NCBI RefSeq assembly: GCF_037042905.1 | Contig: NC_087250.1 | Coordinates: forward strand, 23,376,001-23,440,000 | Length of the DNA stretch: 64,000 bases | Direction of reading: 5' to 3' | Origin: Lytechinus pictus | Lineage: Eukaryota | Shown here: positions 15,528-55,886 of the stretch, one piece after another | Numbering within the stretch: position 1 is the stretch's first letter | How the letters are laid out: the number at the start of each line of letters is the position of its first letter | The notes under the pieces: generated by a model | The model's input: the letters and a program-made list of their open reading frames with translations, nothing else | Database searches by the model: none | What the model was told of the DNA's origin: nothing | Program-made: the position numbers and the translations under genes

Positions 15528-15613
15528 TCACTTACCTGATAATGAAAGTGTAGATGAGATAGATCCAGGCAGAATGGAAGGAAAAGAAAAGAAACACAAA
15601 ATATGGATTAGAA
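15528..15613 (-). other. Candidate recursive splice site (zero-length exon) RS-3, junction 15536/15535
   Basis: Minus strand reads TTCTAAT-CCATATTTTGTGTTTCTTTTCTTTTCCTTCCAT-TCTGCCTGGATCTATCTCATCTACACTTTCATTATCAG|GTAAGTGA. Branch-like A at 15608; no other AG in 15538-15624. Confidence 0.75.
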
Positions 15614-15829
15614 TAATGTAATAACTATTATTTCCTTTTTCACATCAAACGGAAGAATAAGAGGGGGTTTTTCAGATTTTTTCTAACCTTATTCTTTCTT
15701 TCTGTATTTAGCTAGCATTGTAAAAATAAAAATTGAATACGTCTTATACAACCTGATCATAATGTTTATTTAATATATCATCACTCTCATATAACTTTGC
15801 ATCGAGATGTATCTATCTCTTCTGAGGCT

Positions 15830-16060
15830 GAATGGGTTGGTACTGTTGCTATGACAGCGCCACTACAAAGTTCATGGGTAATCGCCGCTCTAGCGTGAGG
15901 GCGTTAATCCGTGTCCGGGGCCGGCTCTGATGTCGAGCCGGGCGCGGATATCAAAACGTGATGACAGGCAGGTCTGTCCTTGGATTTTAGCGCCAACCGA
16001 GCGAGGATGATCACAGAGACAAGGAAATTTGATGACTCGATCATGTTAGAATCCTAATCA
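15830..16060. promoter_or_regulatory. CpG-rich unique island, candidate cis-regulatory module
   Basis: CpG-dense in an AT-rich background; X-box-like GTTGCTATGACAGC (15845-15858); TAATCC/TAATCG motifs. Confidence 0.35.
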
Positions 16061-16124
16061 GAACGTATAATGTAATGTAAGTAGGTCTAGTTATGGTGTG
16101 TGCCTGTCAGCAATTGCAATTTAA

Positions 16125-16517
16125 AGGTAAATTCCAGTTCTGGTAACGATCTCAAATTGACTTTTTACAGAATCTAATATAATGACCACCCAAGTGTCTG
16201 TTTGTATAAATAAAAAATATGTGCCAAAGGATTCTGGAAGAAATTGTGTAATTGCTGAGAAATAAGCAAAATAAGCGCGGATTCGGTCACTTCCGTCGGG
16301 TCTTTATTCCAGCAATTATAATACACTGTCCCACGTGTGCCTATCTGTGTTGGCGATCTTCAGTGTGATCGTATTTCAGCTTGGATTTTATGATTTCACA
16401 AAGTTCAGTTTATGTAACTGTACCAGATCTAGATCCTCGATGATATACTGACAATTAAGCCTGGTTTACAGACTTTCTCATGAAATCAGTGTTTACTGCA
16501 ACTACTGGCATTTCTCT
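16125..16517 (+). mobile_element. Kolobok-like (TTAA-target) non-autonomous element
   Basis: TTAA|AGGTAAATTCCAG start; near-identical inverted copy at 56402-56795. Confidence 0.85.
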
Positions 16518-17920
16518 TGCTTTTCAAATTGTCTTCAATTAAGAACACTTTAATATGAGACACTGCAAAGCGTTCGTTGTCAAAATTAAGATGCAATTGC
16601 CAAAATAAGTGATTGTCAAATTGCTATTACTCTTAATTAATCTATTTTGGTGGTAGTTTGAGTTTGAAGATGGCATTTTTAATTGGTGAAGGTTTTTCAA
16701 ATCAAATACAGATTGAAATCACGTCTGGAGTGTCGCAGTGCAGTAAACTAGTATAAACCATTTCTGATGTATATCTATCATGAAGTTATTTTTCTTATTA
16801 TTATATCTGTCACTTTTGAGTATCTCTTTCTATTTTATAATTTGAATTCAAAGGTGATGTTACCCCAGTGAGCATTCGCTTACATTGATTAAGATTGAAG
16901 TTATTTGAATCTGGAATGATGAATGAATGATTCAATTATCTTAAATCGCTGCCCTAAAATGGACCCTCATTAGTTGCCCAATTGTTAAGCCAAGCCAGGG
17001 AGTTGGGAGGTTGATTCATTCCAGTAAATCACTCACATGCATTATTTATCCAACGAGATGTATATTTCTTTTAACTGTAGAATTAAAGCTATCAGCTTAC
17101 CTCTGAATGCATTCCAATATAAATCTGTTTTGTTGTCCAATGATTTGGATTTTATTGGATTTTATTTCTATCTATTCGATTCTCTTCAGTCCCCACTCTC
17201 CTGACCCCTTCCCCTAAAAATAAATCCTCTCTCCTTCCCTCCTATCAAACTTTCTCACTTCATAAAACCTTTGCCATATACAGGCCTAGATATCAAGTGA
17301 AGAAATTAACTTCAATTTCACACCTTAGTGGAAGGAGATTATCCTCCAAGATTCTCTTAATCCTACCCAATTTCAAGCCTTTATGCACTGCTAATTGCAG
17401 ACACAGAGCTGATCCAGCATAAATGTTGAATTTCCCTCAAGAAATTGGAAACAAGTTATTTCTACTTTTGCTTAGACGGGAATAAAGCTATTTAAGAACA
17501 CGGAGATGAAATAGAAAATGTTAATATTCAAGATCTAAACTAGGAACAAACAACGATTACAGATATGCACGTTGTGATGCCTCAGAGGAAGGAACCTGCA
17601 TAATTGAAACCATAAGGAATATTAAGATATCAAAATATCAAAATTATAGTTGAAATTATGTTCAACTACATTGCAGATAATTATTGATACTGGTGATTTT
17701 TCTCAAATAACTAGACTTTCATTTAATACAGGGAAATGCTTATTGCCATCATCTCCAACAGAATAATTGTAAAGTAACTGGTTGATATAAATAAAGGACT
17801 GGAAAATATCCATGTACACAATAGAAGAAGCATTGCTGTTTTGAAAAGAATGTACCACAAGCATAAGACAGAATATTCTCATACATGCAATTGAAGGAAA
17901 ATGTGTCCATGGCACACTAA

Positions 17921-18587
17921 TACCCTTTTTACACAGGATTTTCTTAGCCCCGGACTATCGCTAACCCCGTACTTTCCTTAACCCCGTACTATTTTTTTTC
18001 CTTTTCACACATGCCAAATTGTTATTGCTAACCCCGGATAAGGAATGCTTGCTTTTCACACACGAAACATGACTAGTGGTAGCTCATGAATATTCACGAG
18101 CGCACTGAGGGGTCATTCGGGTCATATCCAAAATCGCGCGCGCTTTAAATACATTTGTCGATCATTCGTAGTACAAGTACTTCACTCGGAATTGTTTATC
18201 GACTATACAATAGACCTAATTACGTTATTTGCTTGATTCTCATCACCGTGTTCGCTGTCATGAATATTCATTATGCTTACCTCTGATTGGACAACAGGGC
18301 CAGCTCTGTTGCGGGGCATGAAAGGGAGCGCTTAGCCCACTTTCGTTTTACACTAGCGATCTTAACCTCGTACTATCGCTCTTAGCACCGCAATTGCTGG
18401 GATAACCCTGTTTTTTTGCAGGGCCAAATAATCCCGTACTAAAGGTGGGGTTAGACCACTTTGCAAAAATGCTGTGTAAAAAGAAAGTGGGCTAAGCTTA
18501 ACCCCGTACTATAGGTGGGGCTAAACGGCAATTTAGCCCCACCTATAGTACGGGGTTAAGGAAATTTTAGCGTGTATAAAAAGGGTA
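17921..18587 (+). mobile_element. PIF/Harbinger-like non-autonomous element
   Basis: TIRs TACCCTTTTTACAC / GTATAAAAAGGGTA; TAA TSD; many TAACCCCGTACT subrepeats. Confidence 0.9.
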
Positions 18588-18705
18588 TAAGGGTTAAAAA
18601 GCCATCCTTGGGAGTATGAACACAGTTTTCTCCACATACGTTTTGAATGAAGCGTCCTTCGACCAATCTAACACTAAATACTTGACAAGTCTTATTAGGT
18701 GAGCT

Positions 18706-19116
18706 GACCAGTCCAAATATTATCCTCCATAAAGCCGCAAAATACCAAACACCCTAGTCTAAACAAGACTGGGGAGAAGGCCGGTGTTCAAGAACATGTA
18801 AAGCCTGTTCACACTAATGGATCTCAAATTTAGACCAGTCCAAATATTATCCTCCATAAAGCATCATCTAAACAAGACTGGGGAAAGGGAAGGCAAGTGT
18901 TTAAGATCACATCAAGCCTGTTCACACTAATGGATCTCAAAGTCAGACCAATCCAAATATTATCCTCTCTAAAGCATCGTCTAAACAAGACTGGAAAGGA
19001 GGAGGCCACTGTTCAAGAACACACAAAGATTGTTTACACTGCAATGGATCCAGAATTTAGGCCAGCCCGCATATTATCCACTTTCTAAAGCCTAGTCTAA
19101 ACAATATTGGGGAGAA
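18706..19116. repeat. Minisatellite, ~114-bp unit, ~3.6 copies
   Basis: Units start GACCAGTCCAAATATTATCCTC at 18706, 18833, 18946 and about 19060. Confidence 0.9.
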
Positions 19117-19476
19117 GTCGACTATCGTCAGTTTGCCACTATTTTAACTACTATGGTAACAGGGCTCAACAGCCAATCAAAAATTAAGGTTTGTTTGGTA
19201 GTTACAATATTAATTAAAAAATCTTTGTAAAACGGATCCAAAAAGTCTCCATAATGAGTGTCCACTGCACAACTAATTCACAAGCGCAGATCCTTTCTGT
19301 AAATTTTCTTTTTATTTATTTATTTTTTTTATAATTCAACTAAACCATACTCCCCCTCTCATTAGATGGAACGAGGGAGAAAAGTTCCTACATGTGCTAA
19401 AAACATTTTTTTACTGAAGACTTAAGGTCAGGCAACATACTGAGTCCTGTTTATCATCTCAGCAGTAAGCTTTCTT

Positions 19477-19490
19477 GTTGCCATGGAAAC
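19477..19490 (+). promoter_or_regulatory. RFX X-box motif
   Basis: GTTGCCATGGAAAC matches the RFX consensus. Confidence 0.4.
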
Positions 19491-20090
19491 ATGTTGTTCC
19501 AGCTCCCTTACCACTGCTGTTGGTGGAGCTAGTCTTGTTTGGAGACAATGCATAATTTATCATCTCAAGATTTTCTTTGATCGCAAAATCATGCAAATGT
19601 TAAGTTGAATATTTAGAAAGATAAATAACTGACAGACATTTTGAGTTATTTTCCCCAGAAATATCATCAAAATAATCATTGTAAAATTTGATGCCTGAAT
19701 GTTCTCTTATTCAGAATTCTACAAATTCATGTAGTTTGAAGAAAGCAGATTCAAGACATTTTGACAATTTGCCTTGATACAAGGCTATCAATCTGGATCA
19801 GCAGGTGCAAGACTTTAATAGCGACTCCTCATTAGTGCATAATTGGAGGAGAAAAAAACTCAGATCATTCAATAATAGATATATTACGACCTTATTGCAT
19901 CTTCCATTCAGAGTGTTTGGATAGGGGATTTGTGTTCCATTTTTTATATCTTGCCATTTTCTATCTTTCTTTTGATTTTGATCAATTCATTGACTCATCC
20001 TTTTCTCTTTTTTTTGGGGGGGTGTATCATAGCTGGATAGTTGTTTCAAGAATTAAACAAATGATGATAATGTCTTAAGTTTGTTTTCTT

Positions 20091-20523
20091 TTTGCAAAGT
20101 GGGCTAACCCCACCTTTAGTACAGGATTATTTGGCCCTGCAAAAAAGCAGGGTTATCCCAGCAATTGCGGTGCTAAGAGCAATAGTACGGGGTTAAGATC
20201 GCTAGTGTAAAACGAAAGTGGGCTAAGCTTAACCCCGTACTATAGGTGGGGCTAAATGGCAATTTGGCCCCACCTATAGTACGGGGTTAAGGAAATTGTA
20301 GCGTGTGTAAAAAGGTACGAGTGAAGTACTTGTACTACGAATGATCGACAAAAACCACTAGTCCGGGGTTAGCGAGTTTCGTGTGTGAAAAGCAAGCATT
20401 CCTTATCCGGGGTTAGCAATAACAATTTGGCATGTGTAAAAAGGAAAAAAAATAGTACGGGGTTAAGGATAGTACGGGGTTAGCGATAGTCCGGGGCTAA
20501 GAAAATCCTGTGTAAAAAGGGTA
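20091..20523. mobile_element. Rearranged copy of the 17921-18587 element
   Basis: Four segments of the element in mixed orientation; both termini point rightwards (ending 20317 and 20523). Confidence 0.85.
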
Positions 20524-21666
20524 AAGGAGAACATTAGCAACAATCAGTTTTCCCCTCTTTTTTCATTTTGGGACTATATTCTTCATAGACAAAAGAGTAG
20601 GTTTTTTTTTCGCAATTTCATTTGCCCATCCTAATCCACCCATTAGCATGCCCCCCTACACCTCGTTTTTGCAAATTACAGGTGCTGTTACATGTTTAAT
20701 CAAGATCCAACATTTAGCAAGCAGTCATGGGTCATACATCACCGTCCCTTCTAAATTAAGAAAGGGGGGGGATAAAGCTACTATTGCATTTTCGCATGTT
20801 AACCCCTCTTCTACGACAATGACTAATGCCCTGTCTCACCAACCTTCATCTCACACATGAAAGCTTGATCAAGTGTAGCCCTAGTTACATCATGATAAAA
20901 CATTGGAAATAAGGCAATGGCATGTATCAATCGGGAGTCTGTTTGAGCTGGTGAAGCTCCACAAGAATCAGAATTCTCAGAAAAGGGCTAGACAGTGCCA
21001 ATCACACACGGCAACAGATAATCAAATGTGATCAATTAAGTATTCATAATATTGATATTAATGCCATTAAATGAAAGTCCCCTCATTGTCATATCAAACA
21101 ATGCAAAGAATTCCCCACCGACCGATGATTGATTTTTCCATTCATGCGCAACATATCCAATTTCACCTTTTCTTCCTTGATCAAAATAGTTAATTAGTGA
21201 TTGACCAAATATTGATTTTAAAATCTAATGCATGAAATGAAAAGCTTGGATTGCTGTCACTGAATTCCACATGTCGAAGGTTGATGACCTCAATCTATTG
21301 TAGTTTTCATTTGATGAGGTCATGGGACCAAAGATTCTGGCCATGTACATTTCAATTGTAGGGTTTTAGTTACAAAAGTGTTCTGGGGAAATATCAGGGG
21401 GTCTTATTGAATAGAAATAAGAAGTCGTTTGGCTGAAATAAGTAGATTGCAAACTGCAAAGTAATAACTTGCAAGAAAGAAAAGAGGGAGGAGGGGGCAT
21501 ATTCCAAAGTCCGAAACAATCAAGAAAATTATTGACCTTCTTGAGAAAAAAATAACTGAGTGATAGATTTTGATAAAATATTTATAGAATATCATATTTC
21601 AATCTTTTCCTTTCTCTCTATTTCTCCCTTTTTCCCATCTGTAGCCAGTGATTCAAACATTTCAAT

Positions 21667-22142
21667 AGGTGGTTTCAGACCGCCTCGAAGTTCGTCAGTT
21701 CCAGGTATTCTCTGATCGGGAAATTTACCCCGATCAGAAAATACCAGGTATTTTGGTAATGTGAAAGCAAACTACGCATAATTTCCCCGAAAGAAAATAC
21801 CCGCTAAATAGTAGGTACTTGGCGAAATTACGAGAACTTTCGCGGGGATTTTTCCAAGGTCGCAGGTATTTTGGCAATGTGAAAGCAATTTACGGGAACT
21901 TTTAGCCCAGCGTGTCGTTGGGCGCGGGCGCCGTGTGTGGCTGCTGGGCTAGTGGTTTTGAATCTCGCGCCTTGCCTGCTTATTAGACCATACTGCGCAT
22001 GCTCCTAACGTCAGGAATTTATCCCGAAGGGTATGTTTCGGGGCGGTCTGAATGCAGGAATAATTAATGGGTATTTTTTAGCCTAAAAATGTTCTCGTAA
22101 TTTAACGGGGATTCTTGTGATCGAGGCGGTTTGAAACCACCT
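21667..22142 (+). mobile_element. ~476-bp PIF/Harbinger-like MITE, copy 1 of 3
   Basis: TIRs AGGTGGTTTCAGACCGCCTCGA / TCGAGGCGGTTTGAAACCACCT; 3-bp TSD AAT. Confidence 0.92.
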
Positions 22143-22821
22143 AATGTATTGCATACTTTTTGTTTGTTTGTTTATTTACTGTCATACAGAATGGGTGTGA
22201 ACTGAACAAGCCATCAGCTGATTAGATTAGATAAATCAGCATCATTTTATTGTATTTGAACAAGACCATGGAGGTTTTCAAAATCAACACCTGCATCTGA
22301 AAAAAGGATTTCTAGGGAAAGACAGTCATAGAAACTAGTATTTACAGAAATTACTGATGGTCAAAGAATGTCTACAGTTGAGACAGATTATATGATTTTC
22401 TTTGTTTGTTCCACGGAGATATAATCGGCTGTAGGGCAATCAAGCCATATAAATTCCAGTGGCATTTTGACTGGACACAAATAAAAATGCTTGAGATATC
22501 TCCAAAATTGGATGACCAAATAAAATGACAAAGGGACACGAATGTTGCAAGGACAAAAATATACAATTAAAGTCTAGTTTTTGAAAAATTCTTAGAAAAA
22601 ATAATCAGCATATTTGTACATAGAATCAATCAAATAGATAAATGAACATGACCTTGATTATGTTGAATAACACTGATTTAGACAAAATTTAGTTATGAAT
22701 ATTTACTAGTATATTAAAAATCTTTCAGATGACTTCCAAAGAAATTGGATCCATGACATAATGAACTTAGGATGTGTTGAATTAGATTTGAGCAGGCATC
22801 ATTGAAAAAGAATGTAACTTA

Positions 22822-23629
22822 GGCTGCGTTTATGCGACCTCAAGCCAGAATCATGATTTGAATCATGATTTGAATCATGATTCAAAACACAAACATGAAT
22901 CACGATATCACAGAATCAGCGTTTAGACGACCTTCATTCCAAAGCTGTTTCTCCTCAGATTCGGGCCAATCCAGTGCGCATCACTAGTGCGCAGTTTGAC
23001 AGAGGAAGTTTTTCGCACGTGTTTCGGCTCTCGAAAAATATTTTGCTTCCAGAATTCAACCTAAGTTTACTTCTATCATATAGGGTCCATATGCTTCTAT
23101 TCATCTTGTTAGTTAATCCAAAATGGTGTTCGGAAGTGAATTTCAGCGTAGATCCAATTTAATATTGACACTCTATACTCAACAACAACTGAGATCATTG
23201 TCTGTCCAGTTAATTCATTTACTAGAACTTGAAGTTGAAGACATGACCAAAAAATGAAAAGTAGTGGACGATGCGAAGACCAACACAGAATTTGAACATG
23301 ACAAGAAATGCATGCAATGTAATCATGTACATACAATGAGCACATAGAGAGCCTTGAGCTTGGCAAGAGTCAAACCGAAAGCCGTAGCCCGACACAGTGG
23401 GGTCATATAATCATGATTCAAATCACGATATCGTTTATTCGAACATTTTCGTACGTGATTCTGCAGAAACGTCTTTCCAAACGCCCCTTTTTTCGTGTTT
23501 CATGTTTGTGATTCTAATCATGATTATATTCAATTTCGACTAAACGCAATCGTGATTCTGCAGAATCATGATTTGAATCATGATTCGAATCATGATTATA
23601 GGGTAAAAAAGTGGCGGATAAACGCACCC
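22822..23629. mobile_element. PIF/Harbinger-like non-autonomous element
   Basis: TIRs GGCTGCGTTTAT / ATAAACGCACCC; TTA TSD; tandem palindromic AATCATGATT repeats near both ends. Confidence 0.88.
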
Positions 23630-24204
23630 TTATTCAGTGCTTTCGTATTTGCGATTCCAAACTCGAAAGATGTTTATTACTTTGATTTTTCAACAGATGA
23701 CAAATTTCATGAATGCAGTTTGACTTCAACAACATGTTTCTAGGGCAAAAAAGTATTAAATTATTGGAGCCATTTTTAACATAGACTATAAAATGTGAAA
23801 GGACAATACATTGAGAATCAAGAACTTTATAAAAAAGCAATGTCTGTTAACAATGAATTTAAAACCTTTGTATACACAATCAACTTGATTATCCCCAAAT
23901 ATCACAGGTTATTGGGGCGATGGAAGGAGGAGGCGGAGCTGTTAATCTGTAAACAACATTAAATTGGCAATAGAGGTATAAAATGAGTCCCTTTGTCAAC
24001 AGAAAGGTAGCAGTAATGTAGTAGGGATGTGTCAAGTCATAAAAACGTGTTTGGATGAGATAATAACAGGTGAGATGGGTTTCAGAGAAGAAAAAAAACA
24101 CCCACAAAAATACAGTTATATGGATAAAATAGGAAAGAATAGAGATATGTAGAAGACTAAATTAGCTAATAGGGAGTTAAGTATTAAAAATGAATCACAT
24201 TACA

Positions 24205-25132
24205 ATTATAAGCCAAGTTTAGCCCTGAAAAGGTTGATGTGAACAAATGAATGAAAATAATAATTGGCATTTATATATTCCGCCATCTATCTAAAAATAT
24301 TATATTCCGAGGCACACGAGAGAAAAGAAAGAATAAGAGGGTTTGGACAACCATAGCACTAAAATTTCATTAAAATTAGATGTAAAGTAAAGCATGGACC
24401 TGGGGCCCGTCTTACAAAGATTTGCGATTGATCCGATCAATCCCAACTATGGAAAGCCAGCAAAGTCAACGTATAAAATGCATGTTTGTTCAAAAAAATT
24501 CTAGATATGAATGTATATCCATAAATTCATTGATTTCTTGACAATTTGGTGTGTTCTCCTTTTTTACAAAGGACATTTTGCAAATTTCCTGTGGAATAAA
24601 ATTATGATACTGATGGATTTCCATAGAGTTACGATTGATTGGATCAATGGTAACTCTTTGTAAGACGGGGCCCTGGTCCATGAGTATAGTTTTCACATTC
24701 TAGAGTTTTGCCCCCAAAAAGTTATATGCACAATGAGGGTGATATATATGCAAATGGAAGAAAACCATGTTCATTCTTTTTTTTTTTTTTTTTTTTATTA
24801 CATGAAATGAAAATTCATGTTTTTCACTTTTGTTGGTTCAAGGATAAAGCAAGCTCTTGAATGTATTGTAAGTTAAAATAATGGTGATTCCACATGTTCA
24901 CTGTACATTGAAATATTCTATATTTCAAAATGAATTAAATATAGTGAGTTATGTCTACCAAATTGCTGTCCTTATTATTTACATGTTCCCTGTATTATGC
25001 CTATCACTGTTTTGCAAAATTAAGTAGAAATTTAGGATGTCATTACTTACTTATTTTACATCCACTTTTTTAAATCAAATTAAGCGAAAGTAATTTGTTT
25101 AAACCTTTTTTTTTTAAAGCATTGATCCTTTG
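24205..25132 (+). mobile_element. Old Kolobok-like element interrupted by nested insertions
   Basis: Subterminal inverted motifs AAAATTAGATGTAAAGTAA / TTATTTTACATCCACTTTT; interrupted at about 24256-24345 and 24393-24682. Confidence 0.5.
24403..24672 (+). mobile_element. GGGCCCGTCTTACAAAGA MITE
   Basis: TIRs GGGCCCGTCTTACAAAGA / TCTTTGTAAGACGGGGCC; CTG TSD; family copies at 58469-59000 and 58542-58810. Confidence 0.9.
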
Positions 25133-25583
25133 ATGGAATTTTAAGTGCCATGCTCTTTGATTTAATTCCCACCAAATGAATTAGGTATTCTTGAGTTTAG
25201 GGGAAAATCCCATCCAGAGACTGTACCCCAAGACAACTGTCTCCCATATCAGAGCAGGCATTGAACTTGTAAGTTATGTGTCATATCATTCTAGGTATTG
25301 GAGCAATGCACCATCAAAGGTTATGATAGCCCCCATGAACCGGTATCAGGGTGTATATATTGCACCTCTTCTTGCCCCACCCTCTTGAAAACTGAAACAA
25401 GATCTGACAAAAATGTTTTCAAATTACAGCTTGTTCCATGAGCTTGTTCCTACAGGACCAATAGTAAATTTGTCATATTCATCAAATTTTCACTTAAAAA
25501 ATGAACAAAAACACTATTTTTTGTAGTAATTTTCTAAAGCCAAATAATTCAAATTCCTCAGGGGTGTTATAACAACATAGACT

Positions 25584-25657
25584 GTAGTAGTACAAGTAGT
25601 AGTAGTAGTAGTAGTAGTAGCAGTAGTAGTCATCATAGTAGTGGTAGTAGTAGAAAC

Positions 25658-25728
<71 letters not shown>

Positions 25729-25771
25729 AAGTAGTAGTAGTAGTTGTGGTAGTAGTAGTATAGCAGTAGTC

Positions 25772-25855
<84 letters not shown>

Positions 25856-25921
25856 ACAGCAGCAGTAGTAGTAGTAGAAGTAGTAGTAGTAGTAGTATTA
25901 GTAGTGGTAGTTGTAGTTGTA
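25584..25921. repeat. (TAG)n microsatellite
   Basis: About 340 bp of GTA repeats with few interruptions, followed by an AAT/AAC-rich tract. Confidence 0.97.
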
Positions 25922-30050: not shown

Positions 30051-30057
30051 CTTATTA

Positions 30058-33526: not shown

Positions 33527-33548
33527 AATATCCGAGTAATAATTTGTT

Positions 33549-43640: not shown

Positions 43641-44159
43641 CAGACAGAGGGCAGGTGATGCTAAAATGGCCGTCTAAATAATCACAGCGATGCATCCTGG
43701 GTGTTTTTAACCAACTCCAATCAAGCTCAAATAATTTGATGTTCCCGTTCTTTCCGCCTGATCTACGAATGGAATATGAGACGATACTGCAGTCCCATGC
43801 CTTTACTTTTGCGTTGGACAAACAAATGTTATAACAGGCAGCCTTCTGATACAACATGTTAGAATGCAAAAATGACTGAATCAAAGACAGTGTTATGTCA
43901 CATTGAAGACAAATTTTTAAAAACATCCTTTTCGTTATAATAATATTTATAACCAACTCTAGAATGTAAGTATACATTTCCTGTAAGGCTGTCACTCAAG
44001 CGTTCTAACACTGAAAAATTGACATGTGACATTTCATAAATCGAATAGTAGTACCAAATACAGACACAGATAAACTTGTATTCTTTTTGTCAAACGATTG
44101 TCAAGACACAGCTCTAGCAAATCAATTATTTCATATTATATATCAAGTTTTTAACAGTC

Positions 44160-45060: not shown

Positions 45061-45717
45061 ACCTTCACCCTATATTATCATTTTCCTTCCCAGAATCCCT
45101 TCCCCTGTATATAACACCTCCCCATCAACCCATACATGATATAATATCCCAGAAGGTGTTCCATCTCTAACTAAACAACCTCTCGGGGCCAGAGGTGCGC
45201 TATTTCTCCAAACATGAACATCTCTCTAACAACTGTCACTCGTCCCGGGCTACCCAAGATTTTTCTTGGGGGTATTTGAAGACGTCGCACCTTGATAATT
45301 GATTTCTCTTTTATTTTGTTCATCATTTTGATCTCGCGAGTCTTACAGCACTGCCAGCATAGTAATCAAACAAATTGATTCCATGGATGCGACGAAAAGA
45401 AAGTCAGAATCCTACAACATTTAGTGTCAGTATGATGTCTTTAGAGAGATCAGTTTAAAAAAGTATAAGTCTTCACCCTGATATCTGAGCTCTGATATCA
45501 TTGTCATGTTATAGAGTATTGATTGTAATGCATTCATTAATATTTTTATGCTGTAGATTTATAATTTTCATGGCTGATGTAACTAGGTATAAATGTTAAT
45601 ACTGCTATTCTGAGCAATCATTGTGGCATTGAGTGGTATCACCATTAATGGTGGTGGTGGTCATAACTATCACAATTACCAGTCCATAATCATCCTTAAT
45701 CAACATCGTTGTTTAAC

Positions 45718-45955
45718 TTCTTCTTCTTCTTCATCACCATCATCATCACCACCATCCTCATCACTACCACCCCCATCATCATCATCATCACCACCATCCT
45801 CATCATTACCACCACCATCATCATCATCATCATCACCATCATTGTTTTTGTCAACATCATCGCCATCATCTTCACCACCACTGCCAATATCACCACCAAC
45901 ATCATCATCATAATCAACATCATCATCATCACCATCACCACCACCAACAACAACA
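45718..45955. repeat. (CAT/CAC)n microsatellite
   Basis: Degenerate trinucleotide repeats. Confidence 0.95.
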
Positions 45956-46403
45956 ATATTATCTTGCTCTTTCACGTTCATCAACAAGAATAGGTAGATA
46001 ACAAACATCATACAAATCCCCCCAAAAAACATTTTCATTTTATATCATTTCAACAAAACCCAGTGAAATTGTGTATCTCATGATTTCCACCCAAAAAGCT
46101 CTATCTACACTTATAACACCACCTACAAAAGAAAAACATCTGACTCCAACAATCCCATAATGCCCCAGCTCTCCCCTAGGCCCAATCCACTGAAGAAGTC
46201 CGATCCCCGAAACCGCCTCGAACAAATTAGCGGGTAACGTTTAGCACGGCTCATCTTACAGAAGGCCAAGACTTGAAGGAGTCCGCAGGGGATAGGTCCT
46301 AAGATGGGACACAGTTAGAAACGTTTAACTGACAAAGATGCTGCGCTGTTATATGCACTATGCTGACAAGAAACAGGACATGTGTAATCTGTAATATGGG
46401 GTG

Positions 46404-46920
46404 TAATATACAAATAGCGAATAGGCATGAGTGCGATGGTGCGAGATTTCGCATGAGGTGAAAGCAAGATGCTCTATTCAACGAGGCGTTAGCCGAGTTG
46501 AATAGAGTGTTTCTTTCTTTCACCGAATGCGAAATCTCGCACCATTGCACGAATAAGAATATTCGCTATTTGTGTTGTACAACGCCTCGGAGTTTAGCGA
46601 ATTTATGAAAAAACCAAGAGTTTTTCCTGCAGTAATCTATGGAAAGGGAGCAAAAATATGGAAAGCGAAAAGCAAAATCCCACAAGCGAACACCTCGGGC
46701 AGCATTGCGCATTTAGCCAGCAGGCTATACGCGTATTGCACCTGCATTTTTACTGAGCGCAATGAATTGAATCGTATTGTGACGTCACCTCCTAAAGCCG
46801 TGCAACGGTACATTTTGGACGGTACATTTTGGATGGTACGTCTTTTGTGCAACGGTACGAATGTTTGACATTCAGCCTCCCATTTGCTCGCGTACAACAA
46901 GCTAAGTAGGCGTTGTACAA
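46404..46920. mobile_element. Probable non-autonomous DNA-transposon-derived repeat
   Basis: CpG-rich block with internal inverted repeats (AATAGCGAATA / TATTCGCTATT, GTGCGAGATTTCGCA / TGCGAAATCTCGCAC, GTACAACGCCT / AGGCGTTGTAC). Confidence 0.55.
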
Positions 46921-47129
46921 TATGCAATGTACGTTGAAATCTACAATGTGGGGTGTAATCTACCATCCATGGTATTATGACATCACAATGACATATCACC
47001 TGGAAGCCCTCATACAGAATATGAAGCATCTGACTCCAGTCATACAATAATAACAAAGCGCTACATGGAACGATGTCTCTAAGAGCTTTACAGACATATT
47101 AATTATTAATTTACTACCCCGGTCATCAG

Positions 47130-47375
47130 ATCCTTGCATGCCCACATACAATGTATGCACTTTCTCCACCTCCTGGGGAGCATTCCAATCAGAGTTCAAA
47201 AACTCAATTGCTAGGCATGCTACATAGGATTTCGCATCCTACCGGGTACTCATTTAACACCTGGGTGGAGAGTGACAAAGTGTGGACTGATGCCTTGCCA
47301 AAGGACGCTCGGCCAAAGTGGGATTAGAACACATGACCCTTTGATTACAAGGTAGAAGCGGTACACCAAAACGCT
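47130..47375 (-). mobile_element. tRNA-derived SINE, family 2
   Basis: GGGTACTCATTTAACACCTGGGTGGAGAGTG is the reverse complement of the family core. Confidence 0.75.
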
Positions 47376-48315
47376 AATAACAATAATAATATACAACATA
47401 TAGCACTTAATACAAATGCTTCTAAACGCTGCATACTATTAATGAAGATGACACTTCATAACCTGCATAACATTATTTAAAACTTCAATTTAAATTTACT
47501 GTACAATAAATGTTGATTATTAGTTTTGCATAAAAAGCCTCTATGGGAATCACAGAATTCGGTAGTTAACAGGTTAAGCTATCAAACCTCTGAAAATCAC
47601 CAGAAATAAGTAAGTACCCTTCAAATTAATGATTATTGCTTAACACCCAGAAATGGGGCAAATGTAACGTAATATCATTCCATATCATACTCATAGCAAC
47701 TCGTCATAACAACCACGCATGAATGCGTACAGACAGACTCTAATACCCACACATATTCATACAATTCACAGAGTCGCATCTTTCTGGTCTCCATTACAAG
47801 CAAGTAACCTACATGATCTTAAATTGGCGCTGAAATCGGATTAAGCGCCGGTTAAGGCGAGACAGACGACACGCTCCCCACACCTGTCAGACATACAACC
47901 GAGAGCTTATATTAACCTACATTCGTTTGGAAAAGAGAAGATTGAGAAATTGTCCGTTATTTCACCTTTATTGGAGAGAGATTATGTACTATTAACCCTA
48001 ATACACTTGCATGGCTTTATTTAGGATTATACTCTTTTAATTTGTTATTTATCACTTTCTCAATTACATTTAACAACTTTTTCAGGTTATTCAGGACCTT
48101 TTTTATTTTAATTTTGCAGAACAATATAATTAGTCATTGTTTGGTATCTGGAATCAGTGCTTTTTATTGGGTTTTTACTAATTTTTGTAGGCCTTTAAAT
48201 GCTTCATAATGTGTATGTGGGACAACAGAACTGTTTTTTTATGATTATAATTATATCCAATCTGGTGAGGGGGAATTTGTAAAGCACATTCGCTTGGAAC
48301 AGAGGACGTAAAAAT

Positions 48316-48848
48316 GGTTCCATGACATTTGTTCCGGTGACAATTGCTCCACTGTAAATTCCATACCCTAACAGAATGACCAGCTATTCTTTACGATCTT
48401 CCACATCTACCACTCTTGTGATCCCGCGTAGCAGGACCAAGCATTATGGAGATCGGGCTTTTAGCTATGTGGCGCCAGTTATGTGGAATAGACTGCCAAG
48501 TACTATCAGGAAGATGAACACTCTTAAGACATTCCAATCGAGTGTCAAATATTACCTATTTTTACAACCATATTAGAGAAGGCCATGTCTTTTCCTCACA
48601 TGAATGTTATGTTTGATGATTTGAATTGTGATTATTTCCAATGCTTTTGTTTATTGAATATGTAGCGCCTTAAGTAATGACCCATTAGAAAGTGCGCATT
48701 AGAAATACTTATTATTAGCTTTTACACAGGATTTAACACTATTACCTATCCTAAACCTAACCCTAAACTTAACATAAACTCCCATTGCAATCCTAATCCT
48801 AACCCTATATCTTAGACGAAATAAAGCCTGGAGCAATTGTCGCCAGAA
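48316..48848. mobile_element. GTGACATTTGCTC-family MITE split by a LINE fragment
   Basis: Left half 48316-48384 and right half about 48717-48848 match the 9072-9228 copy. Confidence 0.7.
48385..48716 (+). mobile_element. 5'-truncated LINE (L2/CR1-group) 3' end
   Basis: Peptide YSLRS...YGDRAFSYVAPVMWNRLP..IR..TFQSSVKYYLF matches the typical ORF2 C-terminal motif GxRAFSxxAPxLWNxLP; followed by a 3' UTR and TATTATT tail. Confidence 0.85.
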
Positions 48849-48981
48849 CATCTAATTCTCACAATTGACTGACCAATTGAACTAGAGATTAATCATACCT
48901 CATTATCAAAAGCATTATTAATTTCCTTTATGAATGCACAACTGATAATGGATGCCTTTTGATTCCCTGAGGAGAATATAT

Positions 48982-49456
48982 AGGTGGTTTCAAACCGCCT
49001 CGATCACAAGAATCCCCGGTAAATTACGAGAACATTTTTAGGCTAAAATATACCTATTAATTATTCCTGCATTCAGACCGCCCCCAAACATACACTTCGG
49101 GATAAATTCCTGAAGTTAGGAGCATGCGCAGTATGGTCTAATAAGCAGGCAAGGCGCGAGATTCAAAACTACTAGCCCAGCAGCCACCCACGGCGCCGCA
49201 CCCAACGACACGCTGGGCTAAAAGTTCCTGTAATTTGCTTTCACATCGCCAAAATACCTGCGACCTTGTCAAAATCCCCGCGAAAGTTCTCGTAATTTCG
49301 CCAAGTACCTACTATTTAGCGGGTATTTTCTTTCGGGGAAATTACGCGTAGTTTGCTTTCACATTACCAAAATACCTGGTATTTTCTGATCGGGGTAAAT
49401 TTCCCGATCAGAGAATACCTGGAACTGACGAACTTCGAAGCGGTCTGAAACCACCT
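48982..49456 (-). mobile_element. ~476-bp PIF/Harbinger-like MITE, copy 2 of 3
   Basis: Reverse complement of 21667-22142; flanked by a 34-35-bp direct duplication. Confidence 0.92.
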
Positions 49457-50259
49457 AATGGATGCCTTTGATTCCCTGAGGAGAAGATATGAGAATCATT
49501 ACCAAGCTACATTAGGCATTCAAGAGATGAGCCCTGGTGCATCTCAACTCTCAAGTGTGATAGTATGGTGCAAAGAGGTTTAAAGGGGAGCAGCGAAATC
49601 ATTTGATTCAATTCAAATCACCTATAAGCTTAATGCTCTATGAGATATTTGCAGTAGATCTGATCTCAAGTATATTTGTATATCAAAAGGCTTATTTATA
49701 GTGCTCGCATTGGTTTGATGCTATTCCATTTCTATATTACCAAGTCATATATTTATCAATTTCTACTTTTTATACTATAAAATTATTATTATGACCAAGT
49801 TGTTCATTTCTCTTTACTATGTTAATTTCAATTATGTGACAATACAACACATATTGATTATAATTACTGGTTAGGGTACACAAAATCATTTACTACTGGT
49901 ATGAATTATGAATTGAAAGTAGACTAAAACAAACTTGATACTTGAAGAATTTACATGCCAACATTTTATATTCTGAAAATTGCCCTCACAGGATGAAGCA
50001 TTAGCGCCAATGAAGAGAGTTCACACTTCACATTTGCATTGTATTGCTACACAATCAAAACATAGTATACTAGTAAATGTGAACGAGCTCAGTCACATAT
50101 CAATGAGTGATATACAACATCACATAATGTGGCAATTAAGAATATGAATCATTACAAATGATGAATAAACTATGAGTGCCCCTCTAAAGCTCATCAACGC
50201 ATCCATTCCCTATCTTTACACCAATGCCTTGCAATCTCAACACCAATGCCTCGTTTAGT

Positions 50260-50480
50260 GTGATGAGCGGAGCTATTGCTCATAGCACGTATTGCTGCCT
50301 GATTAATTTTAATTGCGAGTAAACCCTCGCGGACCACGTTAGCTGTTTGGCGCACGAACGAGACAAGTGATGCGACGGCTTGATGATAGAGCTCCCCCCT
50401 ACGCAATCAGAATACGGTGGATGAACCGATGGGGGTAATCGCCTAATCGCCCGTTCTGATTTTGCAGGTGGGGGTGGTTA
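50260..50480. promoter_or_regulatory. CpG-rich unique island, candidate cis-regulatory module
   Basis: CpG-dense, non-repetitive within the window; TAAT/ATTA and TAATCG motifs. Confidence 0.3.
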
Positions 50481-51295
50481 ATTCTTCGGGGAGGACAGTG
50501 GATTTGGATGCAGGAGTAATGAATGAATTACTGCTGCCACTTAAATTTTAGGCTTTGCATTTGATGAGTGAGATTTTATTCCAGATGAGGTCCCCCATTT
50601 TGGTTCTGCTGAAATACTTCTAGTCCCAACATCACAATTCCTGATTGGTTTGAAGACGAGACATTTTCCTCATTTGTAATGTACCTTTTCTTGTACTTCT
50701 ATAAGTTCTCTTTACCTTTACGTTTTGCTCTCTACTAAGCGCCTTGAGCATTTAATCGAAATGGAAAAAATGCTATATAATCCTATGTATTATTATTCAA
50801 TTGTGATATATTCAGGGCTTAATTTTTTATCAATTACATATGATAATATAGATTCTAATGATTCATTTTAATAACAATTTTTGATAATGAATTATAATTC
50901 TCAAAATAAATTTGAATCATTCAAATCTATAACAAAATTTAATAAAGATTTCAAAATAATAAATTCTAATTCATCATAATGATATATTATAATAACAAAT
51001 TCTTATGATGAATTCTATTAAAATAGAAACAGCGGAAATACATTCTAGTTATAAATAAATTCTATAAATTAATTCACAAGCCAGTATGTTACATCTCCCA
51101 ATTAATGAGCATTATGGATTAATCTATTGCTTATCTTGACCCCCTTTTCAAGGGAAATATTGGTTGTAGGGAAGCGTAATGAAATATCTGTGTCAAATCA
51201 ATACTTTCTCACATCTAATATTCATTCATGAAATATTTAATAGTATACTCAAACAAGGAGGAAAATTTTGTTGACTACCCTCCACGTTTAATTGG

Positions 51296-51530
51296 TATTA
51301 TAAAATAGGTGTATTATTTCAAGCATCGCGATTGGCCAATAAGCGTCACATGACATCTAACTTTTTTGTGCATTGCATGGCAGTGCAAAAGGTGCGCAAC
51401 AAAAACTGACATTGCACGCTCAAGCAGACCAGGGCGGTAGAAGTCCCGGGAGAAGTCCAACAAAACTGTACTGTAACTTTTTAAGAATTTGCTTCTGGGT
51501 TGCTATTTTATAAAACAAATAATGCACTTG
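51296..51530. mobile_element. Probable degraded interspersed repeat
   Basis: Inverted ends TATAAAATAG / CTATTTTATA; internal GATTGGCCAAT palindrome. Confidence 0.35.
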
Positions 51531-52514
51531 CTCTGTCGTGCGTAAAAGTAAATGCAGAGAAAGCTCGGTTTCTTCAGATGGTGCACACTGGGCACTCGGC
51601 GCCAGCGGCTCGTGCACAGTGCGGCACCTATCTCATGAAACCTCACGATCTCTTGAACATATCCAAATTCATATGTCAAAGACTCTCTAAATGTCACAAC
51701 ACCTACATGTATGTGTGTGATCTCAAATTAGCGCCATGATCATATCGACTTATCGAACCACCTTCGGTCAATACCGTCACATCGTAAGCATCAAGTATTT
51801 GATTTTTTTTCAGTCTAGAATGGCTGACATAGAGTAGATACTGTCCACAAGAAGCAGAGCTGACTTAAGCCATGATAACACCTCTCTAATCAGAAAAAAA
51901 GAGTAAATGTCTTCTGGCCTCGAAATAATTGACAATTTATTGGTTCATTCACACATGTCTGACCCAGATAAATTTCTCCACTTTAAAAAAAAATTGCCTG
52001 AAGTTCCTGACTATGCAACAAGATTTTTGCTCTTTTCAGATTTTATACAAGGATTACGCATTTTTTTTTGTTTCACTGCGTGCCATGTGCATTCTTGCAT
52101 TTTTGCTTTCCCACTGAAAATGTCCCAAGACAAGGACAAATTCCTGCAATATTTCGAAAAATTACTTAAGTTGATTACATTATCTTATAGGGATAGTATC
52201 TTTCACACCATCCAAATACTTGGAATACACTGTTCAGGGAAGAATACCTTATCAGATACTTTTCCTAATTGGGATCAGTGTGAGAGCAGCTGTAGATGCT
52301 GTAATCTTGATAGTGAAGATGATTTAAACTCTCTCCAGTACAAACAGTAGATGTTACTCTAGATGGCGTCTCGCGAGGACGAGCACGAAGATTAAACAGA
52401 GAATGCGATCAGGAGACAAGGTATAGGATCAATAAATTATTGCAGGTCACCGTTAGAAGGAAATGAGCATCTCATATATTGCTAAAAGGTTGGGGAGTGT
52501 CAGAGGAGTGGTCC

Positions 52515-53225
52515 ATTGCCACTTGGTCTAATGGTGCTTGTCCAGTACCACATGGTTTAAAAGGGGGATTTTGTCTATTAGTACCTGGTCTAAAATATCA
52601 CTTGGTCTAAGAGCCACTTGGTCAAGTAGCACTACAGTACTTGGACCTGGTCTGATATACACTAGTCTATAGCACTTAATCCTGTATCACTTGGTCTTGT
52701 AGCCACTTGGCTTATTCGCACTTGGTCAAATAGCACTACAGTACTTGGACCTGGTCTGATATACACTAGTCTATATCACTTAATCCTGTATCACTTGGTC
52801 TAATAACACAGTCTGATATGATTTGGTCTAATGGCACATGGATTAATTAGATAATCACACATGATGTAATAGGTTATAGCATTGTCTTGAAGCACTTGTT
52901 CTCACTTGATCTAAACATGGACCTACTGCAGGTCCATGGTCTAAACTCTAATTGCAGCTGGTCTTATACCAGTTGGTCCTATAGGACTTGGTCACATGGT
53001 ACTTAGTCTATATCACTTGGTACTACTTGGTCTAATACTAATAGGGATAATACTAATTGGTCTAATACTACATGTACTTGATCTAATGCTAATTAGTCTC
53101 ATACTACTTGGTCTAATACTAATTGGTCTCATACTACTTGGTCTAATACTAATTGATCTAATACTACTTCATCTAATACTACTTGGTCTATAAATACTAC
53201 TTGTTATAATACTTCTTGGTTTTAA
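52515..53225. repeat. Degenerate ~15-bp minisatellite (CTTGGTCTAATACTA)
   Basis: Dozens of TTGGTCTA units; an ~83-bp direct repeat at 52615 and 52719. Confidence 0.9.
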
Positions 53226-53600
53226 ATAATCTTGGGTATACATGAATGAAGGTACAGACTTTATCAACAAGATACAGATAAATTAATTCATTCAGAATTT
53301 CCAGAAATTGCATTAGGAGTAGGCCAAATTTTTTTTTGAATTCAAGACAGAGATTCCCCTCCCTCTTCTTAGTAAGTCAGCAAAGATTTTTTAAAAGCAT
53401 CCTCAAGACAAATTCGCATTTATCATTCGTCTCAATCTAATAACAGAGCCAGAGGCAACACCTTGGTAGTGCCACAGAGTATTTTCCTCCAATCATTTGT
53501 TCACGGAAATAGACCGGTTCTTATTTGCTTGCTAATTTGATTTGATTGTGGATAAAAGAAGTGAAAGCTTCTTGGTGAGGACCGAGCGTTCTTCATCAAC

Positions 53601-53730
53601 TCGGAGCATTTCATGAAACTAATGATTGGTGATTGTCACTGGTAGCTGTTATAAGCTACTGAAATCCTTGCATCTGATTGGCTGAGAGCAGTGACTTTCA
53701 TTGACAAGATGATTTGTGAAACACTCCCCC
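53601..53730 (-). mobile_element. CCAAT-carrying short MITE
   Basis: Reverse-complement homolog of 1619-1760. Confidence 0.75.
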
Positions 53731-54469
53731 TTGGATGAGAGCAATGAGAACACATTTTCGTTATTATTTTTTTCTTCAATTAGTCTATTTCATCCTCTTT
53801 GCCACCCCCCCCCCCTTACCCCCCCCCACACACACATACACACCCTTACACTAATGCATGCATCCTGTTAGAGATGAAAATCATTGTTACAATCATAATG
53901 CAAATGCATGAATGAAAGGAGAAGTCAATGACATACGAGCACTAATGAAGAAAATAATATTAGAGAAATGTATCAATGAAGTTTTCTGATATAGGTTTCA
54001 TGGTACAGCGTGGACCTTTCTTGGACCTAAAATGGACAATCCAATGCTAAAAGCAAGATTTGGAGATTTTATTGATTTTTGTCAATTAAAAACTTGTGAT
54101 ATTTCACATATTAAATCTCATTGATATTTTTAATGGGTCCTCACGATATTTTTTCATATATACAATAAATAATGATTATTTATTGAATGCATAAGTAAGA
54201 TCTTTTTCAATTTTCCAGAGAAAACAGCACATTAACATAAGTTAATATTGGCTTGGGCTTTATTTCCCTTTAAATGAATAGTTTGCATCACATTGTCCAG
54301 CACTGCCAATATTGGAATTCACTACAATTCTCAGATTATGTTAAGTGATGCTACTTAGTTTAAACACATAATTACAACTGCCAAATTTCATCAATTTGGA
54401 CAGATCTATCTTATAATCACCTCATCAAGAGTGCAAACTCTGAAATTATCCTCACCGAATTACTCATCG

Positions 54470-54800
54470 ACCCTAATTAATACACCTTCACTAGTGCCAT
54501 ATAACCAACACACGCAGGTTATACGAGTGGCTTTAACCCACAGACAGTAATAGCCTATATTCCCCTGGGGAGCGTAATTAATGGTAATTAACAGCAATTA
54601 ACCCACATTGATATCAACGACCAATTTACGCATGCGGTAGCAGCATTACTAGTGCTGTATCAAACTTCGGGGTGACTCCCCTATACCCCCGTGTGTTTTA
54701 TGTATCATTGTATTAGCAGCTTTCGGCTAATGTGTATCATAATGCGCGCTGGCGGGCTAATTAAGACATAATACAGCGTGATTAGATAGAAGGGAGGTAT
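54470..54800. promoter_or_regulatory. Homeodomain-site-rich candidate enhancer
   Basis: TAATTA at about 54474, 54575, 54585 and 54758, plus CAATTA, in a CpG-richer unique segment. Confidence 0.35.
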
Positions 54801-54894
54801 AAAACGAACTAACAGGTTTTAGAGTTGTCGGTGTGATGACATAGCTAATGGTTGAATGTTCCGCCAATAATTTGTAGAGAGTGTGAATGAAGCT

Positions 54895-55024
54895 TGGAGG
54901 CATTACATGAAACAAAAAGTCAATGATTCTTCACAGAGTATTTGTTATAAGCTACTGAAAGCCTTGCATCTGATTGGCTCAGAGCTAAATAGTCAGTGAA
55001 GATTTGTTTCATGAAATGCCCCCC
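54895..55024 (-). mobile_element. CCAAT-carrying short MITE
   Basis: Homolog of 53601-53730. Confidence 0.75.
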
Positions 55025-55192
55025 ACGACCAAAAACCTGCTCAATGCAATATAGTTGAATATTCTTGATTAAACTGTAAGTGTTAAAAGATAGTTTGTGA
55101 ATTTCAAAATATTGCAAAAGAACAGGACTTTTGGAAATCTGCTCTTTCTGTATAAAAGGAATTCTTGAAATTTATAGATGCATTTACTCAAA

Positions 55193-55670
55193 AGGTGGTT
55201 TCAGAACGCCTCGAAGTTCGCCAGTTCCAGGTATTCTCTGATCGGGAAATTTACCCCGATCAGAAAATACCAGGTATTTTGGCGGTGTGAAAGCAAACTA
55301 CGCGTAATATCCCCGAAAGAAAATACCCGATAAATAGTAGGTACTTGGCGAAATTACGAGAACTTTCGCGGGGATTTTTCCAAGGTCGTGGGTATTTTGG
55401 CGGTCTGAAAGCAAATTACGGGAACTTTTAGCCCAGCGTGTCGTTGGGTGCGGCGCCGTGCATGGGTTGCTGCTGGGCTAGTGATTTTGAATTTCGCGCC
55501 TTGCTGCTTATCAGACCATACTGCGCATGCTCGTAACTTCAGGAACTTATCCCGAAGGGTATGTTTCAGGGCGGTGTGAATGCAGGAATAATTAATGGGT
55601 ATTTTTCAGCCTAAAAAAGTTCTTGTAATTTAACGGGGATTCTTGTGATCGAGGCGGTTTGAAACCACCT
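55193..55670 (+). mobile_element. ~476-bp PIF/Harbinger-like MITE, copy 3 of 3
   Basis: Same TIRs as 21667-22142; 3-bp TSD AAA. Confidence 0.92.
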
Positions 55671-55797
55671 AAAGAGTGATCAGCGATCCTACTCGGAGAG
55701 GGGGGGGGAGGGTCATTTCAACATTAATCTAACTAGTTGTAACTGAACTTTATGGGGAGGGGGAGGGCTCAAGACGGGGAAAAAAGTTTTAGAACAA

Positions 55798-55886
55798 TCA
55801 CTTACCTAATGAATGCAAACAGATTGAGTAGAAGCGGCAGTACAGCAATATGAAAAGAAGAGAGAAAAAATGAAATTGAGTTAGAA
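55798..55886 (-). other. Candidate recursive splice site (zero-length exon) RS-1, junction 55806/55805
   Basis: Minus strand reads TTCTAAC-TCAATTTCATTTTTTCTCTCTTCTTTTCAT-ATTGCTGTACTGCCGCTTCTACTCAATCTGTTTGCATTCATTAG|GTAAGTGA. Branch-like A at 55881; no other AG in 55808-55926. Confidence 0.75.

Follow-up and report, generated by a model that had tools for sequence, protein, structure and literature searches.

Recursive splicing at AG/GTAAGT (the slash marks the splice junction) is established in flies (10.1101/006163). Ratchet points were described in the Drosophila genes Ubx, kuz, osp, fz and luna (Burnette 2005 as cited in PMC2773006), with five ratchet sites in 108 kilobases (kb) of luna. 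Fly recursive segments average 17,953 ± 9,039 nucleotides (nt) (10.1101/006163), and 196 of the 197 fly ratchet points carry TT at positions -5/-6 (Duff et al., preprint 10.1101/006163). In vertebrates, the established form of recursive splicing involves a recursive splicing exon, or RS-exon (Sibley 2015 as cited in PMC6224609). Proof exists for about 200 sites in flies and for a handful of genes in vertebrates; other phyla are almost blank, and the way in which an exon of zero length is recognized is debated. Here, we describe a chain of putative zero-nucleotide recursive splice sites in the sea urchin Lytechinus pictus. The window analysed, a stretch of 64,000 nt (contig C6:23376001-23440000), lies within the first intron of an ephrin gene on the minus strand; three of the sites are in the window, and eight were found along the intron.

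Sea urchins have been included in one computational study of such sites. In sea urchin introns longer than 50 kb, 0.540 sense and 0.066 antisense ratchet-point sites (RP-sites) per 100 kb were counted, an 8.2-fold difference (Shepard et al. 2009, PMC2773006, Table 2), and the result, as presented in the accessible part of the paper, was computational, aggregate and based on a human-consensus matrix (Shepard, McCreary, Fedorov 2009, PMC2773006). According to a preliminary description of the window, no such system was known from an echinoderm-like genome; this was overstated, as the available text of PMC2773006 already reports aggregate computational enrichment for sea urchin. No per-gene description, RNA proof or site architecture of recursive splicing was found for an echinoderm in the literature searched. 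A 2026 preprint on features of human recursive splicing deals, in its accessible part, with CG content at the ends of first introns and not with the layout described here (PMC13105047), and the layout was not found in the literature on recursive splicing and AG exclusion zones, as judged from titles and the beginnings of abstracts.

Composite Sites in the Window

All coordinates are those of the window unless a contig is named. The window was extended by 100 kb on each side to 264 kb in total, and positions outside 1..64000 are expressed in the same numbering (negative values lie below position 1). Three stretches of the window, 15528-15537, 28503-28512 and 55798-55807, matched the sequence AGGTAAGTGA exactly, each of them on the minus strand. 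The junctions were located at 55806/55805, 28511/28510 and 15536/15535, with spacings of 27,295 and 12,975 nt. Read on the minus strand, TAG, TAG and CAG directly adjoined GTAAGTGA, and pyrimidine-rich sequence and branch-like motifs were present upstream. In 100 dinucleotide-preserving shuffles, the expectation for AGGTAAGTGA was 0.12 copies (standard deviation 0.33), and a count of three was reached in none of them. There was no copy of AGGTAAGTGA on the plus strand of the window. These results bear out the preliminary description, which had reported three minus-strand loci with YAG joined to a donor at these junctions and no such site on the plus strand.

The octamer AGGTAAGT alone was mildly enriched in the window, with 5 copies against 1.87 expected, and 3 of 100 shuffles reached 5. 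Two of the five copies (31846-31853 and 10283-10290, minus) were without upstream signals, so the real signal is the composite site and not the octamer. On the sense strand, these two copies had no T-tract, and their AG-exclusion zones were just 11 and 16 nt long.

The three loci had also been called non-homologous, and BLAST supported this. With ±600 nt around each of them, the loci matched in register over only 13 nt at the junction and 18 nt of the T-tract (E 0.012). In an all-versus-all BLAST of ±500 nt around the eight sites described below, in-register similarity was confined to the element itself. The 401 nt around 28512, the one site searched in this way, occurred a single time in the 811.7-megabase (Mb) assembly. 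Since there was no homology beyond the element and the searched site was unique, the sites did not arise as repeat copies.

First Intron of the Ephrin Gene

The window had been proposed to lie inside a very long minus-strand intron, and exons of one gene were placed on both sides of it. Exon 1 (138247-138087, minus) encodes a signal-peptide-like start, MSQLSRTKFSWPSPMALPKAKSGIIFFVNALLLLWSVTLAKTLQPIAWDKNNS, and has the donor TCTAA/GTAAGTTC. Its 3' end reads ...AACAACTCTAA (TCTAA), in a phase compatible with exon 2. Exon 2 (-46542 to -46828, minus) has the acceptor ...ttccatcacag/T and the donor ATCA/GTAAGT and encodes the ephrin receptor-binding domain (Pfam Ephrin PF00812, E 4.2e-21). Exons 3-5 were located by tblastn at about -47436 to -49376 (minus), within 3 kb of exon 2. 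The features of ephrin family membership were present, namely the receptor-binding domain, an N-terminal signal peptide exon and a C-terminal hydrophobic tail. Intron 1 extends from 138086 to -46541 on the minus strand (184,628 nt), makes up about 98% of the ephrin gene length and contains the whole window (1..64000).

The predicted ephrin of Strongylocentrotus purpuratus (P0001) consists of exon 1 (94% identity), a single N and exon 2 (95%), with no insertion. The ephrin model of Lytechinus variegatus (P0002) showed 99% identity across 95% of exon 2. According to the accessible text of PMC4996649, a single ephrin is reported in sea urchins, expressed in the embryonic dorsal ectoderm and ciliary band. 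The L. variegatus model, named 'ephrin-B2-like', starts with MNISVD within exon 2 and is without the signal-peptide exon that the S. purpuratus model has. As exon 1 lies 185 kb upstream, the L. variegatus model has apparently lost it, probably because the annotation failed to bridge so large an intron. Annotation pipelines can lose first exons across introns of this size.

The earlier statement that the 64 kb hold no coding exon also stood. There were 13 stop-to-stop open reading frames (ORFs) of at least 120 amino acids (aa) in the window, seven of which were low-complexity by eye. In the Pfam scan of the other six, no family was found above the cut-off; one match was sub-threshold (17.2 versus 23.3 bits).

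Chain of Eight Sites

The three window sites are numbers 4 to 6 of a chain of eight with one composite acceptor-plus-donor layout, all on the sense strand of intron 1 and spaced along its length. The same-strand chain noted earlier in the window is thereby extended, and chance falls far short of explaining the composite layout. Over the 264 kb, AGGTAAGT occurred ten times on the minus strand and twice on the plus strand, and eight of the ten minus copies had the common layout. Elements 1-3 were found by layout match on the minus strand, with the A of AG at 113514, 102392 and 82183 (C6 23489514, 23478392 and 23458183). Element 4 (55798..55884, A of AG at 55807, minus) has CTAAC at -77, a T-rich tract, CAT at -45 and an AG-free spacer before TAG/GTAAGTGA; its AG-exclusion zone is 119 nt, and pyrimidines make up 77% of the 60 nt upstream. 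Element 5 (28503..28592, A of AG at 28512, minus) has a TTAAT-type motif near -80, a T-rich tract, CAT at -50 and an AG-free spacer before TAG/GTAAGTGA, with an AG-exclusion zone of 104 nt and a pyrimidine fraction over 60 nt (Y60) of 0.70. Element 6 (15528..15611, A of AG at 15537, minus) has CTAAT at -74, a T-rich tract, CAT at -39 and an AG-free spacer before CAG/GTAAGTGA, with an AG-exclusion zone of 87 nt and a Y60 of 0.78. Elements 7 and 8, again minus-strand layout matches, have the A of AG at -9041 and -26934 (C6 23366959 and 23349066).

YAG/GTAAGT was exact in all eight sites. In the 264 kb scanned, composite sites were absent from the antisense strand and from the 79 kb beyond the intron. 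An AG-exclusion zone of 76-150 nt combined with 63-78% pyrimidine over the 60 nt upstream was found at 8 of the 22 AGGTRAG sites of the minus strand and at none of the 24 of the plus strand. Such upstream features were present at 86 of 14,726 minus-strand AGs, and 8 of the 86 were then followed by GTAAGT, against 0.03 expected (binomial P 9e-18). With a looser filter (at least 60 nt free of AG, at least 60% pyrimidine), 0 of 16 AG/GT sites on the plus strand were followed by GTAAGT.

The eight sites divide intron 1 into nine pieces of 24574, 11122, 20209, 26376, 27295, 12975, 24578, 17893 and 19606 nt, with a mean of 20.5 kb (20,514 nt). When eight points were placed at random, a coefficient of variation as low as that of these pieces (11.1-27.3 kb) had P 3e-4 and a largest gap as small had P 1.5e-4.

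Structure of the Elements

The displaced T-tract is the most distinctive feature of the elements. In the eight sites, the T-rich tract peaks at -70 to -51 (79-90% pyrimidine, 61-73% T). Upstream of it, a branch-like CTAAC or CTAAT (CTRAY) was found at -74 to -77 in four of eight sites, and the others had TTAAT-, CTTAT- or TTGAT-like motifs by eye. All eight sites carry CAT at -39 to -50, in the position where an ordinary acceptor has CAG. The spacer after CAT is 36-47 nt long, 64-76% pyrimidine and contains no AG in any of the eight sites. A pyrimidine at -3 (T in five sites, C in three) precedes AG/GTAAGT in 8/8; TT at -5/-6 was found in only one of eight sites, and A at -5 in seven. The polypyrimidine tract that had been described before the YAG is present, with the strong T-tract in fact displaced ~45 nt upstream.

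Owing to the AG-free zone, GTAAGT is fused to the earliest AG that follows the branch point. The pyrimidine at -3, CTRAY at -74 to -77, and the clustering of CTRAY over all 30 sites considered below are acceptor-type features that no mere donor would need. In the four ordinary acceptors of the ephrin gene, the pyrimidine tract stands directly against AG, and in three of them one has to go back about 35-38 nt to reach another AG (both by eye).

In the donor half of the eight sites, G was found at +7 in five and A at +8 in seven. Neither +7 G nor +8 A is known to improve U1 pairing. The three ordinary ephrin donors that were read (GTAAGTTC, GTAAGTCC and GTAAGAAC) are without the +7 G/+8 A extension. 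No GTRAG was found within 160 nt downstream of the junction at the eight sites; weaker donors were unscored.

Several other identities for these sequences were considered and rejected. Downstream RS-exon donors were found at none of the eight sites (160 nt) and at none of 20 other sites (58 nt). Spacers coding for signal-peptide- or transmembrane-like sequence were set aside, with frames inconsistent or closed and no common sequence by eye, and spliced-leader RNA genes were set aside, the 'leaders' being different at every site. A U12-type motif (ATATCCTT, at the 102392 site) or an Rbfox motif (GCATG) at CAT occurred in one or two sites each and was taken as coincidence. In the 102392 element, at about 102430-102437 (minus), the CAT reads gcATATCCTTc and includes ATATCCTT, the U12-type 5' splice-site consensus; this was seen at one site only.

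Sites of the Same Layout in the Genome

The pattern TTCTTTT-N0-12-CAT-N34-50-YAGGTAAGT had 30 matches in the genome (29 distinct), against 22 for the reversed control. Spacers were AG-free in 23 of the 29 distinct matches, against about 7.5% expected (0.944^45 from AG frequency); the ephrin intron accounts for seven of these, and 16 are among the 22 sites outside it that were confirmed in sequence. With YYYYNCAT in place of the strict tract, 27 AG-free spacers were counted by eye among the 99 distinct matches listed (156 others were not listed). The fly-type pattern Y10-N-YAGGTAAGT was not enriched genome-wide (32 versus 48 in the control).

Two of the 22 outside sites were confirmed in a 50-kb stretch of contig C4 and the other 20 in 221-nt pieces. 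Their AG-exclusion zones ranged from 50 to more than 160 nt (at least 65 nt in 21 of 22), and Y60 ranged from 0.63 to 0.78. TT at -6/-5 was present in 3 of 22, and no GTRAG was found within 58 nt downstream at 20 of these sites. Over all 30 sites, the eight of ephrin and these 22, 10 of 26 CTRAY occurrences fell at -90 to -71. G at +7 was found in 21 of 30 (16 of 22 outside ephrin) and A at +8 in 19 of 30.

Four same-strand pairs were found outside the ephrin intron, whereas well under one is expected for a few dozen sites over 811 Mb. The pairs are C4:2464788/2496224 and C4:14732203/14763310 (both 31 kb apart), C4:29405948/29482969 (77 kb apart) and C14:6806074/6832968 (27 kb apart). Three minus-strand elements on contig C14 (6806021-6806241, 6832915-6833135 and 26095646-26095866) resemble each other in their spacers (CCATG.TCCAT.T.GA.G...TCTTCTT...CCAATCAG/GTAAGT), which the ephrin sites do not. 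A distance of 27 kb separates two of the three on one strand, and the three may be duplicated elements or share a conserved spacer.

RNA Reads and Neighbouring Features

Reads from three ribosomal RNA-depleted RNA runs with the same species label and from one contig set were mapped to positions 12000-31999 of the window; about 6% of each run was read. All RNA depth in this region was on repeats, and the reads were mostly 95-99% alike with a partial fit. As these reads are not identical and run into unlike sequence, they are transcripts of repeat copies elsewhere and not of this intron. Among the best-supported rows listed, there were no joints or loose ends at 15536 or 28511. Unique bins, those with these two sites included, had a depth of 0-0.07 in the fraction of the runs that was read, too low to speak for or against use of the sites. 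An exact 28-nt scan of metagenome contigs gave 0 matches.

The interspersed repeats lie at 16002-16668, 20004-20670 and 21338-24672, with RNA depth up to 170 on both strands. The long trinucleotide-like tracts of low complexity at 25494-25942 and 38447-39142, with more than one frame open (poly-L/Y/S/V and poly-D/I/S/M), are simple repeats, not genes. The upstream neighbour of the ephrin gene, at about 147676-153339 on the minus strand, encodes a large C2H2 zinc-finger protein (Pfam zf-C2H2, zf-H2C2_2), and its last open frame stops about 9 kb before ephrin exon 1. An intact 1049-aa ORF with PHD, endonuclease and reverse-transcriptase domains, typical of a LINE (long interspersed nuclear element)-like retroelement, was found at 157013-160159 (minus).

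Predicted Splicing of Intron 1 and Alternatives

We propose that the three window sites are zero-nucleotide recursive splice sites (ratchet points) and part of the eight-site chain in ephrin intron 1, with a probability of about 0.75. Their use in splicing is probable, and the order of steps, the branch point used and the role of the spacer are predicted from the sequence. During transcription of the intron, exon 1, which ends in TCTAA, would be spliced to the first YAG. With GTAAGT directly after AG, the join would rebuild the 5' splice site TCTAA/GTAAGT, which could then be reused with the next element, eight times in all, until exon 2 is reached. Intron 1 would leave as nine lariats of 11-27 kb, and zero intron bases would be left in the mRNA. 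The TAA end of exon 1 pairs poorly with U1, which fits the exact GTAAGT at every step. In the S. purpuratus protein model, exon 1, N and exon 2 follow each other with nothing from the intron in the mRNA-level product.

The CAT and the spacer may serve as an AG-less, exon-sized 'virtual exon' that would leave room for U2AF/U2 at the tract and U1 at GTAAGT to be bound at the same time. This idea builds on the lower size limit of exon definition.

Several observations weigh against recursive splicing at these sites. The branch-like motif is about 75 nt from AG, which is unusually far, and in some sites a possible alternative branch point, CTRAY at -27 to -40, lies inside the spacer. TT at -5/-6, present in 196/197 fly ratchet points, was found in 1/8 sites here and 3/22 elsewhere; with this near-universal fly rule broken, membership in the fly class is by analogy. 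Genome-wide, YYYYNCAT-N34-50-YAGGTAAGT had 256 matches versus 327 for its reversed control and the strict pattern 30 versus 22, so that raw counts were not above control; only the AG-free subset, counted by eye, stands out. Furthermore, the 22 outside sites were chosen by a pattern that already demands the tract, CAT and the spacing, and only their lack of AG in the spacer, the greater length of the exclusion zone, the branch-like motif and the +7 G are independent of it.

Four other explanations of the chain were weighed. The sites could be used in another order, each GTAAGT...YAG stretch being cut as an intron of its own, with the last step joining exon 1 to exon 2. Every segment does start with GTAAGT and end with a branch-like motif, a tract and YAG, and the upstream half of one element together with the downstream half of the next would recreate the same element. 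Such nested removal is a variant of recursive splicing that still uses these sites. The steps in flies are sequential from the 5' exon, as indicated by exon-ratchet junction reads and lariats in the accessible part of 10.1101/006163, and we consider non-sequential removal improbable. Slightly less credit is given to elements that hold U1 without resplicing, for example suppressing premature cleavage and polyadenylation or tethering nascent RNA, with the AG as the exonic half of a donor. U1 small nuclear ribonucleoprotein on long introns has a role in suppressing premature cleavage and polyadenylation; as a donor consensus, CAG/GTAAGT is complementary to U1 over its full length, all eight sites have an exact GTAAGT and the spacing is regular. 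Holding U1 would leave the acceptor half unexplained, namely the AG-exclusion zones of 76-150 nt in 8/8, the T-tract and CTRAY near -75, and T at -3, found in 5/8, is rare on the exon side of donors.

It is quite unlikely that the sites are the ends of unannotated short exons, in which the 40-50 nt from CAT to AG/GT would form a mini first exon, transcribed from the CAT onwards, or part of a cryptic or poison exon, with GTAAGT as an ordinary donor. The T-tract and CAT loosely resemble a pyrimidine-rich initiator, and the donor follows CAT within a narrow range of 36-47 nt. Against this, there is no AG within 76-150 nt upstream, hence no acceptor for an internal exon; no spacer sequence is conserved from one site to another, and by eye the frames in them are short or closed. 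The signal peptide of exon 1 would be missing from any transcript that began there, and the S. purpuratus model has nothing between exons 1 and 2. AG avoidance upstream of a start site would have no rationale, and eight promoters at 20-kb steps would be unparsimonious. Chance, or relics of a dispersed repeat, is effectively refuted. The mild enrichment of AGGTAAGT alone and one unrelated repeat family that also ends in TTTTCAGGTAAGT could be taken in its favour, but the composite probability is of order 1e-17, the strand count is 8 versus 0, there is no similarity beyond the element, the searched site is unique, and the RNA reads piled on repeats avoid these places.

Recursive splicing through the eight ephrin sites therefore remains our preferred reading. 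A wider statement is tentative, and we are more inclined to doubt it than to adopt it: sea urchins, which are basal deuterostomes, may remove their longest introns by constitutive, fly-like zero-nucleotide recursion with a ratchet element design of their own, in which an AG-less virtual-exon spacer pushes the branch point and the tract ~45 nt upstream. U2AF/U2 and U1 could then cooperate as in exon definition, with no steric clash and no exon left behind.

Comparison with Known Systems

The ephrin locus is a testable case in a classic embryological model, with a single-copy gene, a 185-kb first intron and eight predicted steps, and the layout of its sites departs from the fly rule in a way that suggests mechanism. 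If the wider statement on sea urchins is true, zero-nucleotide recursion would go back to the bilaterian ancestor, vertebrates would have mostly lost it or put RS-exons in its place, and the spacer would be a new solution to the recognition of a zero-length exon.

In the accessible part of their paper, Shepard et al. (2009) dealt with RP-sites of the same kind in the same animal group; the text available names no gene, chain, spacing or site architecture and presents no RNA test. The density in the ephrin intron, 8 per 184.6 kb (4.3 per 100 kb), is about eight times the average given there. As far as the accessible sources go, vertebrate RS-exons share with the ephrin sites the rebuilt 5' splice site, the location in long first introns of cell-signalling or adhesion genes and the occurrence in deuterostomes. 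Vertebrate RS-exons and fly cryptic RS-exons are described there as needing a downstream 5' splice site, whereas the ephrin sites have no GTRAG within 160 nt. In the ephrin elements, the exon-sized spacing element is AG-less and lies upstream of the AG, while the RS-exon of vertebrates lies downstream.

A further resemblance is to acceptors with distant branch points and long AG-exclusion zones, as reportedly described by Gooding et al. in 2006. Such acceptors also have a far-upstream branch point, and the first downstream AG is chosen since earlier AGs are absent. They are ordinary exon acceptors, often regulated, whereas in the ephrin intron a donor is joined to this arrangement, which recurs along the intron.

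The closest likeness is to the ratchet points of Drosophila. In both, YAG/GTAAGT stands on the sense strand of very long introns, several times per intron and with no exon left, the segments are similar in length (fly mean 17,953 nt; here 20,514 nt), and the hosts are developmental signalling genes. The five sites cited for luna in the available text compare with eight in the ephrin intron, and G at +7 occurs in 21/30 sites here. The fly tract abuts the AG, whereas in the ephrin sites CAT and an AG-free spacer separate it from the T-tract, which lies at -70 to -51. Use is proven in Drosophila and predicted for the ephrin sites. The host gene and the chain are newly defined, and the architecture lacks a defining feature of the fly sites and keeps their logic, with function as ratchet points probable.

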